Sequence record: PV660448
DNA length: 64,000 bases
Origin: Escherichia phage LF82-4
Reading direction: 5' to 3' (one strand)
The position numbers and the translations under genes are program-made. This document shows positions 4,345 through 48,820 of the stretch, piece after piece. The notes under the pieces are model-generated. The model was not told the origin of the DNA. It did not search any database and was given only the letters and a program-made list of their open reading frames with translations. Each line of letters begins with the position of its first letter. Positions within the stretch are counted from its first letter, which is position 1.

Positions 4345-6014
4345 TGATGAGTGATATCGCCACCGATTGGACGATAAGAAACACCAGTTTCTTTATCAGT
4401 TAGTACCCATTTACCAGGATTTTTTGTAATCAGAGTAGCCGTTACAGGTTCTGCTACGTCATAACTAATAGAGCCGTCTTGAAGTACACGGCCCATGTTA
4501 CGTAATTGCTTAGTCAGAAGTTCCATACCTTTATAATATGCGGCTACCGCTTTAAGTGGATTATTCTTGAAATAACCACCTAATGCAATCCAGATAATTG
4601 CCACCGCCAAATGATGATACTCGTTAAACGAACTCATCTTTCCATATTTGTAAATTAATGGATTGATGTTAATAGTCACATTACAAGTTGTTTCATCAAT
4701 AGTAAACTGTCCCCAGGTCGGATTAGCATTGAATTCATCATAACCTGAAACAGCATAAAGCACTTTAGCTTCATCATACAATTTTGGCCCGTAAATCTTG
4801 GTTTCGCCAAAATATCCACGAGGGTCGATAAACTTGACTTCGCCGTTATCAGTAATCATAGTATTACTGAAGTTCGGGTCACCATGAATAACAGAGTACT
4901 GTCCCTGAGAACGATTATGATAACGAATAAGGTGTTCTAAAGCTTGTTTCAGCATTGGCTTCAGACGTCCAATCTTAGTGTAGTTCACATGTGTGATTTT
5001 ACCAAATGAATCAATCAATGGTTGAATACTTTCACAACGATCAATAACTTTCGTATAGAATTCTTTAGTGAAATCACGACGAACAGTTTCAGGACTTACA
5101 AAATACGTGTCTGTGCTGAATTTCAGTGCATCTAAAATTGCATCAACAATTTGTGGACGAGCAAGACTTGATTTGGATTTAATATATTCAAATGCCGGCT
5201 TACCTTTAATGCGTTCCATTTCAAAGTTATTTTCATTAACAGAAACTAACTGAGGAACTGAATCTGATTTCACTTTCAAATACCACGAAATCTCATCTTT
5301 CTGAAGAGCTCGTCCCTGTTCGGTTAATGCGAATTTAGTTACAGTTTCTTCACCAATTTCAACTGCATTAAAACTACGATTAAGTTCACGAACTTCATGA
5401 GCTTTTTCAAGTTTAGGCATATCACCTAAATCAATTAGATTCATAAGCTCTGATTTATTGAATGCGCCGCTGTAAAGGAATTCTACGAAATCACGTCCTT
5501 TGCAGTATTCATGAATTTCCTCATCGGTAGAACCCATATAGAATTCCCAGTCTTTGAACTGATAAATTCCTACAACATTACCACCTGTTGAACCTACGTT
5601 AGTGATATTTTCACCGTCGAAATTATACCGACATTCGTCACCCTTAACATAGATTGCGTTAACATTCCAAGACCATGAACCAAAATCAGGAATAATATCA
5701 CACCAGTTAACAATTACATTATGGCCATCTAAATCTTTGTGTAATTTAGCAAGAGCATAAGCAGAACCATACGCTTCATCAACTGTACGAATAGTCACAT
5801 TGAACCCTTCTTGCTCACAATAAGCTCGAACAGTTTCAGCAAATTTTGAATGAACTACTACAATAATTTCATCTGCGCCAAGGTCAGAATAAATTGTATA
5901 CAAATTGCTCAGAATAGTGTCTTGTTTATAGTTAACAAGCACCTTAGGAATATGATGCGTTATTGGATACAAACGAGTTGCCAGTCCAGCACCAAGAATA
6001 ACAGCTTTTTTCAT
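4329..6014 (-). CDS. bifunctional sugar-1-phosphate nucleotidylyltransferase / APH-type sugar kinase
   Basis: 561 aa; N-terminal LGAGLATRL nucleotidyltransferase signature; C-terminal HGDPNFSN and IDPRGYFG kinase motifs (aminoglycoside/choline-kinase fold); GAGGA RBS. Confidence 0.7.
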   Translation of the reverse strand: MKKAVILGAGLATRLYPITHHIPKVLVNYKQDTILSNLYTIYSDLGADEIIVVVHSKFAETVRAYCEQEGFNVTIRTVDEAYGSAYALAKLHKDLDGHNVIVNWCDIIPDFGSWSWNVNAIYVKGDECRYNFDGENITNVGSTGGNVVGIYQFKDWEFYMGSTDEEIHEYCKGRDFVEFLYSGAFNKSELMNLIDLGDMPKLEKAHEVRELNRSFNAVEIGEETVTKFALTEQGRALQKDEISWYLKVKSDSVPQLVSVNENNFEMERIKGKPAFEYIKSKSSLARPQIVDAILDALKFSTDTYFVSPETVRRDFTKEFYTKVIDRCESIQPLIDSFGKITHVNYTKIGRLKPMLKQALEHLIRYHNRSQGQYSVIHGDPNFSNTMITDNGEVKFIDPRGYFGETKIYGPKLYDEAKVLYAVSGYDEFNANPTWGQFTIDETTCNVTININPLIYKYGKMSSFNEYHHLAVAIIWIALGGYFKNNPLKAVAAYYKGMELLTKQLRNMGRVLQDGSISYDVAEPVTATLITKNPGKWVLTDKETGVSYRPIGGDITHQWERI

Positions 6015-45638: not shown

Positions 45639-46595
45639 TTATTTGAAAGGTTTTACCATATGGAAATTTTGTTTGAAACGTTTGACGTAATCATTTTTGC
45701 CGAGCTTATGATACATAGCCACTACTTCATAATAGTTCTCGTATGCGTACTCACGGAACCATCCGGAGGTGATGCTTGTACAGACTTTTTCCAATGCCAT
45801 CATAAAACTGGCTTCAGGGTTAATTTTAAAGTTATTAGGAATCTGAGAACGTTCTAATGCTAATACACATGATTCTTCGTATACACCGGCCAATTTGACC
45901 ATTTCTGGTAATGATTCGAACTTCTCGCGTGAGGTCATGACTTCAGAACCATCTTTCATATAAAATGTATACGCTGGACGGTCTGTTAGTGCAATGGCTT
46001 CATGAATAGTATCATGGTCATATGTATAGATGTCATCTTTAAAGAACGCACTTTTAGAAGTGTCAAGAACCGGGTGAGCATAGTTCAAAGTTTCTTTCTG
46101 GCGTTTCAACATAATTTCAGTAAGTTCATCGTTCAGTGTAACACCTTTACCACGAAGATACTGAATATGGTTCATAGTCTTTAAAAAGAATGGATTATTT
46201 TTCTTGAAACGATGAGACATCTTAATTGCAAGACATATCTCAGGAGTTGCCCAGTAAAACCCAGTCAAACGGTCTTTAGTCAAATTTTTCTTGGCGTATT
46301 TTAAAAGGTCATAAGAAGATGTGAAATCTTCAGGAGTGAGTTCACCGACTAATTCACGGACATTAGTGATTGCCGGAACAATATATGCTTCAAAATGAGT
46401 TTCACGTCCATTATGGAAGCATTTGAAAACTTGGACATCAGGGTTATCTTGGTGAACATATACACCCATCATTTGATTTTTGAATACATTCCAAGAACCT
46501 TGGTCCGCAATAAAGTCCCAATCACTATTTTTGATAGCGCTAGAATCAATAAGGCCATGGTAGTGAAGTGCACGAGAACCAATAACTAACATCAT
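45639..46595 (-). CDS. hypothetical protein (318 aa)
   Basis: track ORF; N-terminal GSRALHYHG...SDWDF weakly nucleotidyltransferase-like. Confidence 0.55.
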   Translation of the reverse strand: MMLVIGSRALHYHGLIDSSAIKNSDWDFIADQGSWNVFKNQMMGVYVHQDNPDVQVFKCFHNGRETHFEAYIVPAITNVRELVGELTPEDFTSSYDLLKYAKKNLTKDRLTGFYWATPEICLAIKMSHRFKKNNPFFLKTMNHIQYLRGKGVTLNDELTEIMLKRQKETLNYAHPVLDTSKSAFFKDDIYTYDHDTIHEAIALTDRPAYTFYMKDGSEVMTSREKFESLPEMVKLAGVYEESCVLALERSQIPNNFKINPEASFMMALEKVCTSITSGWFREYAYENYYEVVAMYHKLGKNDYVKRFKQNFHMVKPFK

Positions 46596-46620: not shown

Positions 46621-46872
46621 TTAAATTTCGCGACATGCGATATTATATTCATCCCAGAGGTCGTCATGTGAAGCCTCTACCAATGGAACGATTGTACCAT
46701 TTATATCTTCATTATAAGGGCAAATTGTACAGTGCGCATCTTCGAATCGGATGCCTTTGTGTTCAGATTTTTTATAACGCATATCGAATATCTTTGCAAA
46801 CTTTTCACGAGTAATAGTTTTAGCAACTACTTCGGTTCCTATACTTTCGTAATAAACCATTGTTGTCTCCAT
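46621..46872 (-). CDS. hypothetical protein (83 aa)
   Basis: track ORF. Confidence 0.5.
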   Translation of the reverse strand: METTMVYYESIGTEVVAKTITREKFAKIFDMRYKKSEHKGIRFEDAHCTICPYNEDINGTIVPLVEASHDDLWDEYNIACREI

Positions 46873-46880
46873 TTAATTTG

Positions 46881-46918
46881 ATAGGACTACTATAACATAG
46901 CCCTATCTTGTTGTAAAC
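46881..46918 (-). promoter_or_regulatory. promoter-early stem-loop, family taggactactataacatagtcct (one arm mismatch)
   Basis: GTTTAC -35; gataggactactataacatagccctatc. Confidence 0.45.
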
Positions 46919-46922
46919 TGTT

Positions 46923-47120
46923 TTAGCAAGAATAACTAGATGATACCCAGCCTTGAACAGTGATACTATTGTGGGATAATGAGATCGCGTCCTGGAGATT
47001 CAGACCTGCATTATCTTCAATCCACAATGTAACTTCTTCACGCTCTTCGGTTGCAATCTGGAACAGGTTTTCTAGAGCAGCTACGGCCGTACGTACAGCA
47101 CAATCTAATTCACGAGACAT
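46923..47120 (-). CDS. small protein with conserved C-terminal W-V-S-S-S-x-x-C motif (paralogue 1)
   Basis: ends ...QGWVSSSYSC. Confidence 0.5.
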   Translation of the reverse strand: MSRELDCAVRTAVAALENLFQIATEEREEVTLWIEDNAGLNLQDAISLSHNSITVQGWVSSSYSC

Positions 47121-47129
47121 ATGATTTCC

Positions 47130-47402
47130 TTAACAAGTGTGAGAAGATGCAACCCAACCACCAGTTTCGAGGCTCAGGTTGTAGTCGTATTGGTAAACGT
47201 CAGCCCATTCGGCATAACCGTTTTTTGTACAACGTTCAAGATCGGCTTTAAGATGTCCGGGTGAATGATAGGTTCCACCCATACCATAAGCTGGGTACAA
47301 GTTGAATGTTGTGTTTTGTTTATCAGCAATTTCTTTGGCAGCCTCAATAGCTGCATAGATTTTTGCTACAGCTTCAGCCAGTTCGGTTTGTTCTTTAGAC
47401 AT
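47130..47402 (-). CDS. small protein with conserved C-terminal W-V-[AS]-S-S-x-x-C motif (paralogue 2)
   Basis: ends ...GGWVASSHTC. Confidence 0.55.
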   Translation of the reverse strand: MSKEQTELAEAVAKIYAAIEAAKEIADKQNTTFNLYPAYGMGGTYHSPGHLKADLERCTKNGYAEWADVYQYDYNLSLETGGWVASSHTC

Positions 47403-47411
47403 AATGATTCC

Positions 47412-47717
47412 TTAGCACAACGCAGAAGATGAAACCCAAGCACCTTCAGTAATAACGTATCCATTACCTTCACGCTTAACATCGCCGCCATTATTTTCAA
47501 TTTCATCTTTCATCCACTGGGATACGATTTCACCCTTAGGATAATAAGTACGACCGCTACCATAATCACCTACAGAAAATGATACGGCATATTGGTCTGC
47601 GATCTTTGTTGCTTCTTCTTCGATACGTTCAGCTTGATTCAGAAGTTTATAAATTGCATCTGAAGCGGATTTGGCATCATTAAACTCTGGTACTTTAATT
47701 TCAATAATCTTACTCAT
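47412..47717 (-). CDS. small protein with conserved C-terminal W-V-S-S-S-x-x-C motif (paralogue 3)
   Basis: ends ...GAWVSSSALC. Confidence 0.55.
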   Translation of the reverse strand: MSKIIEIKVPEFNDAKSASDAIYKLLNQAERIEEEATKIADQYAVSFSVGDYGSGRTYYPKGEIVSQWMKDEIENNGGDVKREGNGYVITEGAWVSSSALC

Positions 47718-47776
47718 TTTCTACATTCCTTAATAAAGTTTTCGATTGTTTCATTTTCACGTTTAGCTAGGAGTTC

Positions 47777-47806
47777 ATTATAACTAATCATTTGAGAAGC
47801 GTAAAC
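47777..47806 (-). promoter_or_regulatory. early promoter (GTTTAC -35, TATAAT -10)
   Basis: minus strand GTTTACGCTTCTCAAATGATTAGTTATAAT. Confidence 0.5.
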
Positions 47807-47815
47807 AGCATAAAT

Positions 47816-48208
47816 TCAGTTAAGGCTTTTGCATCTTATTTCCTTAACGAATTCCATAGCTTCTTCATATTCATACTTTTTAACAGCTTCATCATACTGA
47901 GCTTGGGCTTTTGCGCACTGAACTTTCCATTCTCTTAATCGGGCTCTGTGATGACGGCCTTGGTACCAATATCCCATCCAGTTAATAGGCATTAATAAAA
48001 ATGGTACAATAAGTGGTGCGACGAACATTAATGAAAATGCTGCATCAGACGATATAACTTCACTAGAATCTAAAACGGCTCCTATAATCATAAAGATTAA
48101 AAATGCTAAAGCTAAAATAGGGCCAAATAGTACTTCATTTGGGATTAATTTACGCTTGTATTCATACGCCCAGGGCTTACTTGGCATGTACAGGGTTGGC
48201 TTTGACAT
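47816..48208 (-). CDS. membrane protein (130 aa)
   Basis: ATG at 48208; two TM helices; track start is TTG. Confidence 0.5.
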   Translation of the reverse strand: MSKPTLYMPSKPWAYEYKRKLIPNEVLFGPILALAFLIFMIIGAVLDSSEVISSDAAFSLMFVAPLIVPFLLMPINWMGYWYQGRHHRARLREWKVQCAKAQAQYDEAVKKYEYEEAMEFVKEIRCKSLN

Positions 48209-48779
48209 ATTCTCTACATTCCATAATAAATTGCTCAAGGATTAAATTGTTAGTGAAATTAGGACTAACAACCATAGTTTCATAAAGCGCATCAATAGCA
48301 CTTAAAGCATCAACTCTCTTAAGCAAAGGCTTGCCTTCATACATAGTTTCAGAATCGACGATTAACGTAAAGTAGTATTTTTTATTATCGACTAGAACTT
48401 CTGTATCGATATAAAACATATTAGACCTCAGAAGCTTATCTCTAAAACCATAATAATCTTCAGAGCGTTCGCTGATATATTCCCATTCAGTGTTTAAACA
48501 ACAAACAGACCACGTAGGAGCAACGAAATCAGTGAATCTAATATCATAGTCTGCAACTAGTTTAGCAATAGCTCCGATATCATGAATCATAATACCTGGG
48601 GCTAATAAAGATTTTCTGCTATGGCTAGCCGTTTTCTCAGTGGTTTCATAAGAAGACGACCAATACCATTTACGTCCGGTTGCAACATATCGTAATGAAT
48701 CAACTAAAGACGTAGGTGGATTTACCTTATCTCGGAACTCTTCGAACATTGAGTCAATATCATTATTTTGGTTTCGCAT
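48177..48779 (-). CDS. hypothetical protein (200 aa)
   Basis: ATG at 48779 with AAGGAG RBS; track start is TTG. Confidence 0.55.
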   Translation of the reverse strand: MRNQNNDIDSMFEEFRDKVNPPTSLVDSLRYVATGRKWYWSSSYETTEKTASHSRKSLLAPGIMIHDIGAIAKLVADYDIRFTDFVAPTWSVCCLNTEWEYISERSEDYYGFRDKLLRSNMFYIDTEVLVDNKKYYFTLIVDSETMYEGKPLLKRVDALSAIDALYETMVVSPNFTNNLILEQFIMECREYVKANPVHAK

Positions 48780-48802: not shown

Positions 48803-48820
48803 GGAGGACCGGAGTCCTCC
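48803..48820 (-). terminator. hairpin (7-bp GC-rich stem) followed by UUUUGG
   Basis: minus strand GGAGGAC-UCCG-GUCCUCC UUUUGG, after stop at 48829. Confidence 0.5.

Follow-up and report, generated by a model that had tools for sequence, protein, structure and literature searches.

What might be the function of three small, adjacent phage genes whose products all end in the same C-terminal motif? The genes are located in a stretch of 64,000 nucleotides from Escherichia phage LF82-4 (sequence record PV660448; the whole stretch is referred to as the window), which represents a Mosigvirus (RB69-like, T4-type) genome. All three are on the minus strand and encode small acidic proteins. The first, of 101 aa and pI 4.6 (47412..47717), contains a 'DYGSGRTYYP' hairpin motif, and the second, of 90 aa and pI 5.0 (47130..47402), contains an 'AYGMGGTYH' motif; both belong to PHROG 899. 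The third, of 65 aa and pI 4.2 (46923..47120; PHROG 4882), is a minimal form made up of a helix, strands, and the tail. The protein ends are EGAWVSSSALC, TGGWVASSHTC, and VQGWVSSSYSC, respectively, and a stop codon immediately follows each of them. Together with the stop codons, the tails W-V-S-S-S-A-L-C, W-V-A-S-S-H-T-C, and W-V-S-S-S-Y-S-C occupy 47412..47438, 47130..47156, and 46923..46949 on the minus strand. The genes are spaced by 9 nt. The junction has the form TG[CT]-TAA-GGAA(A)TCAT(T)-ATG, in which the stop codon and the ribosome-binding site of the following gene overlap; in the case of the 90-aa gene, this site is TAAGGA.

The first-pass annotation regarded these genes as a tandem family of three and proposed an alignment of the ORFs as a check. 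The alignment bears out the family: similarity reaches beyond the tail in all pairwise BLASTP comparisons (2e-6, 1e-3, and 4e-4), profile matches were obtained along the helix-hairpin core, and a profile HMM of the family recovers a near-identical ortholog (L006) of the 65-aa protein with an E value of 2.3e-6. Judging from these comparisons, the three genes are paralogs. When all six frames of the 64-kb window were scanned, no ORF other than these three had the W-V-[S/A]-S-S-x-x-C ending. The ending had been given earlier as G-x-W-V-(S/A)-S-S-x-x-C. The part from the Trp onward is indeed present in all three proteins, but the Gly is found at −1 or −2 of the Trp and is not fixed. The MS(K/R) start, which was also thought to be shared, is not a feature of the family, the N-termini being highly variable.

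The codons for the motif vary between the copies (TCA TCT AGT / GCA TCT TCT / TCA TCT TCT; TGC / TGT). This means that no DNA-level element is repeated here. Selection at the protein level had been proposed, and comparison with four Mosigvirus relatives agrees with it: the codon differences are mostly synonymous, with an overall dN/dS of approximately 0-0.2. The 65-aa gene differs from that of RB69 by 13 synonymous changes and one non-synonymous change, and the 101-aa gene differs from that of phiE142 by nine synonymous changes and no non-synonymous change. These values indicate that the three genes are under purifying selection. In the RB69 reference genome, a 1-nt insertion splits the 101-aa gene (ORF138c/139c; L086 5735-6041, equivalent to 47412-47717 of the window), which shows that the phage can do without this gene in the laboratory. 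The tail of the broken copy is WVSSPALC, in which the almost invariant second Ser is replaced by Pro. This replacement is consistent with a constraint relaxed after inactivation.

The three proteins gave no match above sub-threshold noise in Pfam, NCBIfam, and PADLOC. Their PHROG matches (E values of 1.3e-22, 5e-19, and 7.7e-37) lead to PHROG 899 and PHROG 4882, both of which are described as 'unknown function', so that the family, which the first-pass annotation did not recognise, is a nameless one in these collections. A profile search against 1.84 billion representatives gave 173 clusters at 50% identity; nearly all members have 70-120 aa, and the match extends to the last residue. A word-indexed search gave at least 461 family clusters at 90% identity, and a Pfam domain or a meaningful name was found in none of them. 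With this number of homologous clusters, the purifying selection, and the confinement of the motif to three ORFs in the window, the probability that the similarity is due to chance or that the ORFs are non-coding is negligible. One 112-aa family member (P0305; L125 4001-4339) has the JGI name 'seryl-tRNA synthetase', a label that probably arose from a spurious match to the long N-terminal helix of the protein. A 953-aa protein (P0188), considered as a domain fusion, turned out to be a false positive on helicase-associated repeats.

Which part of these proteins is conserved? In an alignment of 66 sequences, the W, S, S, and C of the tail are the sole invariant columns. Within one subfamily in this alignment, the 'YG(M/S)GxTYYP' hairpin is nearly invariant as well. 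The conserved core of the tail is W-x-x-S-S-x-x-C with the stop codon directly after it, and it is present in all three genes of the window. The tail statistics, which lean towards the motif because a pattern demanding S4 and a near-terminal Cys selected part of the set, cover 336 non-redundant tails, 278 of which have the common 8-residue form; the 66-sequence alignment was chosen without this pattern. In the 8-residue form, position 1 is Trp in 278 of 278 tails by construction, as the tails were counted from the last Trp. Position 4 is Ser in 278 of 278 and never Thr, position 5 is Ser in 268, and position 8 is Cys in 276, whereas the other positions of the 278 tails are variable. A short form, W-x-x-S-x-C, accounts for 36 of the 336 tails, and some family members have extra internal W-x-x-S-S-C copies. 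The tail is thus firmly supported, by these alignments, as the feature under the strongest constraint.

The tail is carried on bodies of 52-170 aa that have in common a helix, an '(I)ADExG(I/V)xF' element, and a short sheet. The core of each protein, approximately 60 aa, consists of a long N-terminal helix, a short β-hairpin or sheet, and the C-terminal tail. In the monomer model of the small protein, the Trp and the first residues of the tail belong to the last β-strand. Therefore, the motif could be partly structural and not a free tag. A PDB search with the modelled small protein gave no fold match. In addition, PDB sequence searches with single sequences and profiles of the family gave nothing meaningful, the matches being designed helical bundles.

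The 1.8 kb around the triplet is 97-98% identical to the corresponding region of many Escherichia and Shigella phages, in which all genes are annotated as 'hypothetical'. The RB69 counterparts are ORF134c to ORF139c, which form an insertion between the T4-type genes e.2 and e.3; the T4 gene names are therefore not applicable to the region. Approximately 330 nt downstream of the triplet is a partner gene, the key context that was missing from the first-pass annotation. This gene (45639..46595, minus strand) starts 328 nt past the end of the 65-aa gene, on the same strand, and encodes a 318-aa protein with a nucleotidyltransferase fold. It matches the Pfam families DUF7277 (95.5 bits, E value of 3e-27) and DUF7275 (260.7 bits, E value of 1e-77; the cut-off is 27).

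Between the tail genes and the enzyme gene lies a gene of 83 aa (46621..46872, minus strand; PHROG 3723). Its product has a conserved 'RFEDAHCxIxPYxED' block, and gave nothing above sub-threshold noise in Pfam, NCBIfam, and PADLOC. Single-linkage clustering hinted that it might be a degenerate tail protein; the alignment assigns it to a separate, tail-less, lineage-specific family, which occupies the equal position in enterobacterial T4-like loci. It is a possible member of the module. The sole tRNA gene found between 40 and 56 kb of the window is approximately 4 kb away.

The association of the tail genes with the enzyme gene was examined from both directions. Starting from the enzyme, 80 IMG/VR loci were fetched through this gene. 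Tail-bearing ORFs, one to seven per locus, are present in 74 of the 80, nearly all of them upstream and on the same strand. Of the 1306 ORFs that are upstream on the same strand in these loci, 204 have a loose form of the motif; of the 5558 other ORFs, one has it. Two families alone are common to nearly all of the loci, that of the enzyme (80 loci) and that of the small proteins (73 loci); the family that follows them is found in 35. A tail gene is absent nearby in five or six of the 80 loci, and one of the six pattern-negative loci has a short-form tail gene. In L043, L044, L047, and L077 (~4788-5714), the enzyme gene has no tail-bearing ORF within 2.5 kb upstream, and in L047 the enzyme gene itself appears to be split. 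In the opposite direction, from the small proteins, 24 loci were obtained with a DNA pattern for YGMGGTYY; 14 of these have enough downstream sequence, and the enzyme gene is downstream in all 14. Furthermore, eight diverse small proteins were looked up in public assemblies, including Myxococcus phage Mx1 and a 395-kb contig, and a PF23940 gene is located less than 1 kb downstream on the same strand in all eight. The other neighbours differ among the eight loci: NAPRTase, Macro/HopBF1 kinase, adenylosuccinate synthetase, DNA polymerase/RecA, T7-like kinase, Band_7, and gp59/gp32.

The same arrangement of tail genes and enzyme gene is found in unrelated groups, namely Mosigvirus, Tulanevirus, Phapecoctavirus, Lazarusvirus, and jumbo-phage contigs. 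Two or three tail genes followed by a DUF7275 gene of approximately 300 aa are present in Phapecoctavirus phiWec181, Pseudomonas phage PsgM04F, Aeromonas phage 25, and Acinetobacter phage Berthold. Among bacteria and archaea (one representative genome per species, 185,579 species), the enzyme gave five matches. All are metagenome-assembled contigs, which are probably phage, as judged from the record titles, and they offer no cellular context. The pair therefore forms a mobile, self-contained module, and it looks phage-restricted. Gene order and co-occurrence firmly support the view that the small genes and the enzyme gene belong to one functional unit.

When would this unit be expressed? On the coding strand, the best promoter-like sites resemble T4 early promoters; the total number of sites is not above that in shuffled controls. 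The site TTTACG-17-TATAAT (47777..47805, minus strand) falls within what is left of gene e.3, upstream of the 101-aa gene, and the site TTTACA-17-TG-TATAGT (46889..46917, minus strand) is upstream of the 83-aa and 318-aa genes; both are consensus matches only. The T4 late-promoter motif TATAAATA was not found around the genes. The tail genes are probably expressed early in infection. The earlier suggestion to look for the products among virion proteins finds no support in this promoter pattern.

Small size, acidity (pI 4.2-5.0), probable early expression, and fast diversification are features of many anti-defence proteins, and the frameshifted copy in RB69 points to accessory genes. On this basis, the small proteins might be independent effectors of host takeover or anti-defence, for example acidic decoys or sponges. 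Their tail would bind a host target or a metal, and the linkage to the enzyme gene would reflect shared regulation or co-inheritance in an accessory-gene cassette. This explanation is unlikely, because the pair stays together across very distant phages as the other neighbours change, for which co-regulation alone is insufficient.

The partner enzyme belongs to a family of 2131 clusters and is found in 733 phage records; among the records listed, two guess 'nucleotidyltransferase'. Its AlphaFold model, based on a 36-sequence alignment, has a pLDDT of 91.9. Invariant residues are found where the first helix begins (G6-S7), where the next strand begins (D25-x-D27), and on a later strand (E69). 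Pol-beta-type nucleotidyltransferases are characterised by G-[GS] in a helix-turn, followed on the next strand by D-x-D and on a later strand by a third carboxylate, and all of these elements are present in the enzyme. As this catalytic signature is intact, the enzyme is predicted to be probably active. Structure comparison gave the toxins MenT1, MenT3, and MenT4 as the best matches; Foldseek supports the match to MenT1 weakly, with an E value of approximately 4e-3 that indicates a remote similarity. Since the nearest solved folds are those of tRNA-modifying toxins, RNA may be the real substrate of the enzyme. A Pfam search at E values up to 1 gave nothing but DUF7275/7277, and no AbiEii/DUF1814; no match was obtained in PADLOC and NCBIfam, and sequence and profile searches against PDB chains gave no meaningful match. 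The C-terminal helical half is the most conserved part (blocks 'GVYEESCVLALER' and 'KVCTSITSGWFRE'), and no counterpart of it could be recognised.

Shorter homologs of the enzyme (approximately 250-263 aa) occur in Gordonia, Streptomyces, Mycobacterium, and Vibrio (KVP40, K354) phages and have no tail-bearing neighbours (L088 3827-4911, L089 4878-5968, L090 4360-5417, L091 4821-5941, and L092 4818-5979). Each of them adjoins a protein of approximately 100-120 aa that ends in '...YFK..GYYDSWD...VEV.P.QK.IT.Y'. This second partner family gave no Pfam match, and homology between the two partner families was rejected with an hhalign probability of 0.1%.

The resemblance to the MenT toxins leads to the main alternative, in which the small proteins are antitoxin-like or regulatory partners of a MenT/AbiEii-like enzyme acting on RNA, for instance in extension or repair of the tRNA 3' end. 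The small proteins would inhibit, time, or redirect the enzyme, with the tail as a pseudo-substrate or a plug of the active site; in a variant, each paralog would be a specificity adaptor. Besides the structural matches, the gene order is that of MenAT and AbiE, with the small gene upstream and the nucleotidyltransferase gene downstream. The long N-terminal helix of the small proteins is comparable to the regulating helix of MenA1, a 7.4-kDa partner of which a single helix suffices to regulate MenT1 (PMC11375011). In addition, the enzyme family has two unrelated families of small partners according to phage lineage, and such partner-swapping is typical of toxin-antitoxin pairs. However, up to seven divergent paralogs per locus would be unusual for an antitoxin, and the enzyme is alone at some loci. 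The enzyme shows no sequence membership in DUF1814, and the strict Ser, never Thr, with a terminal Cys looks chemical more than a docking surface. An antitoxin-like role is possible and has to be taken seriously, although we would not expect it to be the correct one.

The differences from MenAT and AbiE, in which a DUF1814 toxin is paired with a small antitoxin, extend to both partners. The likeness is that the small gene or genes are directly upstream on the same strand. The phage enzyme, in contrast, has no AbiEii/DUF1814 match in Pfam, its similarity being limited to the Foldseek value given above, and has an extra, highly conserved C-terminal helical domain. It is accompanied by one to seven partner paralogs instead of one, and these have the invariant W-x-x-S-S-x-x-C tail and, as modelled, no fold match in the PDB. 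Furthermore, the phage module is found in virulent phages and not in bacterial chromosomes.

Divergent paralogs that share one tail, with a hydroxyl that is never that of Thr and a terminal thiol, favour the small proteins as modified clients; an arrangement of many clients for one enzyme fits better than that of one antitoxin. The near-obligate coupling of the tail family to a nucleotidyltransferase-fold gene makes the tail better motivated as a candidate site of modification or attachment, an idea already raised in the first-pass annotation. The model that we tentatively prefer, to which we give not quite an even chance, is therefore that the tail is a docking or acceptor element for the enzyme, which would most likely modify the invariant Ser covalently. 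Enzymes of the nucleotidyltransferase fold can modify hydroxyls of small proteins, as in GlnD-PII, MntA-HepT, and CitX-ACP. Upon binding of a small partner, MenT-type nucleotidyltransferases transfer a phosphate from an NTP to a Ser/Thr of the active site (PMC11375011).

In the docking and acceptor model, the genes of the module would be expressed early, and the common tail would dock every paralog into the enzyme; we infer such a physical interaction from the conserved pairing. The enzyme would then spend an NTP on covalent modification of the tail. The likeliest chemistry would be O-nucleotidylylation or phosphorylation of the invariant first Ser, and the Trp and the terminal Cys with its carboxylate might be recognition or assisting groups. 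Through their variable bodies and acidic linkers, the paralogs would bring the modification to differing targets. A more specific version of this model, which is put forward as a possibility and is rather doubtful in its details, is a hitherto undescribed phage protein-modification system. Here a dedicated nucleotidyltransferase would mark the invariant Ser (or the Cys) of the W-x-x-S-S-x-x-C tag with a nucleotide or phosphate, on diversifying early proteins that might serve as carriers, decoys, or effectors in host takeover.

A different chemistry of the tail should also be considered. The S-x-x-C termini of epidermin-type peptides form an AviCys-type ring. The S-x-x-C-COOH spacing of the 8-residue tail matches these termini, and it is conceivable in principle that the hydroxyl of the Ser is activated by a nucleotidyltransferase. 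The Ser would be eliminated to dehydroalanine, to which the terminal Cys would add, giving a C-terminal lanthionine or AviCys-type ring as in ribosomally synthesised modified peptides (RiPP-like cyclisation). However, the spacing fits the 8-residue tails only, and is unsuited to a ring in the 36 of 336 tails with the W-x-x-S-x-C form. No family of flavoprotein (LanD-type) decarboxylase, dehydratase, or cyclase is conserved in the 80 loci, and the tails are on folded proteins of 52-170 aa and not on leader-core peptides. Such a ring is very improbable, because short tails exist and the accessory enzymes are absent. The small proteins also do not show the combination of a β-grasp fold with a C-terminal Gly-Gly by which sulfur carriers of the ThiS/MoaD type are recognised.

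Modification of the tail by the enzyme has parallels among known pairs. Like GlnD-PII, MntA-HepT, and CitX-citrate lyase ACP, the phage module combines a Pol-beta-type nucleotidyltransferase with a small protein that has a conserved hydroxyl as acceptor; in the case of CitX, a Ser on a carrier of approximately 100 aa receives a nucleotide-derived group. Unlike in those pairs, the modification in the phage module is a hypothesis, the small proteins have no sequence relation or detected fold relation to the known substrates, and the candidate acceptor lies at the very C-terminus, in a tail that ends in Cys. The combination of a short invariant C-terminal motif on divergent proteins with one co-occurring enzyme gene is also seen in sortase/LPXTG, exosortase/PEP-CTERM, CaaX prenylation, and LysW-LysX. 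However, the phage small proteins have no transmembrane segment or secretion signal. The Cys is the last residue in 276 of the 278 8-residue tails, whereas in CaaX prenylation it is four residues from the C-terminus. The phage partner has a nucleotidyltransferase fold and is not a protease, a prenyltransferase, or an ATP-grasp enzyme.

The superfamily of the enzyme and the theme of a nucleotidyltransferase plus a small partner are already known. What is new is that the C-terminal tag is invariant, that the paralogs come in arrays, and that the module is apparently restricted to phages. The entries of PHROG 899 and 4882 and of Pfam DUF7277 and DUF7275 record no function, no link between the families, and no tail motif, and the literature search turned up no description of the family, its motif, or the linkage in papers or annotations. 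This suggests that the tail family beside a nucleotidyltransferase-like gene is an undescribed system of an enzyme and its tagged partners. The module is widespread in large virulent phages, that is, T4-like phages of Escherichia, Klebsiella, Aeromonas, and Acinetobacter, phapecoctaviruses, jumbo-phage contigs, and Myxococcus phage Mx1. In the annotation found, its genes are 'hypothetical' except for a few scattered labels, which are spurious-looking or are guesses of a nucleotidyltransferase. Joining two Pfam DUFs and two PHROGs in one functional unit would be an immediate gain for annotation, and a role would be assigned to several 'dark-matter' genes per genome in therapy phages. Study of the tag and the enzyme could bring to light a protein modification, or a control of MenT-like nucleotidyltransferases, that is new.

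Some features of the region upstream of the triplet should be mentioned. At 47718-47815 of the window, approximately 250 bp are absent when compared with phage 55 (L001 5307-5556); these correspond to most of the T4-type gene e.3. The deletion seems to be common to phages TH12, CCU7, and p000v, whose alignments to the window are unbroken. The adjacent gene for an e.4-like membrane protein (47816-48238, minus strand) is labelled 'sulfurtransferase' in phage JK42 (L002 3056-3430). This label looks spurious, and the protein has only a weak Yip1 match in Pfam. Between the e.5-like and e.6-like genes, at 48803-48820, there is a perfect 7-bp GC-rich hairpin, GGAGGAC-CGGA-GTCCTCC, with a terminator-like score on both strands.
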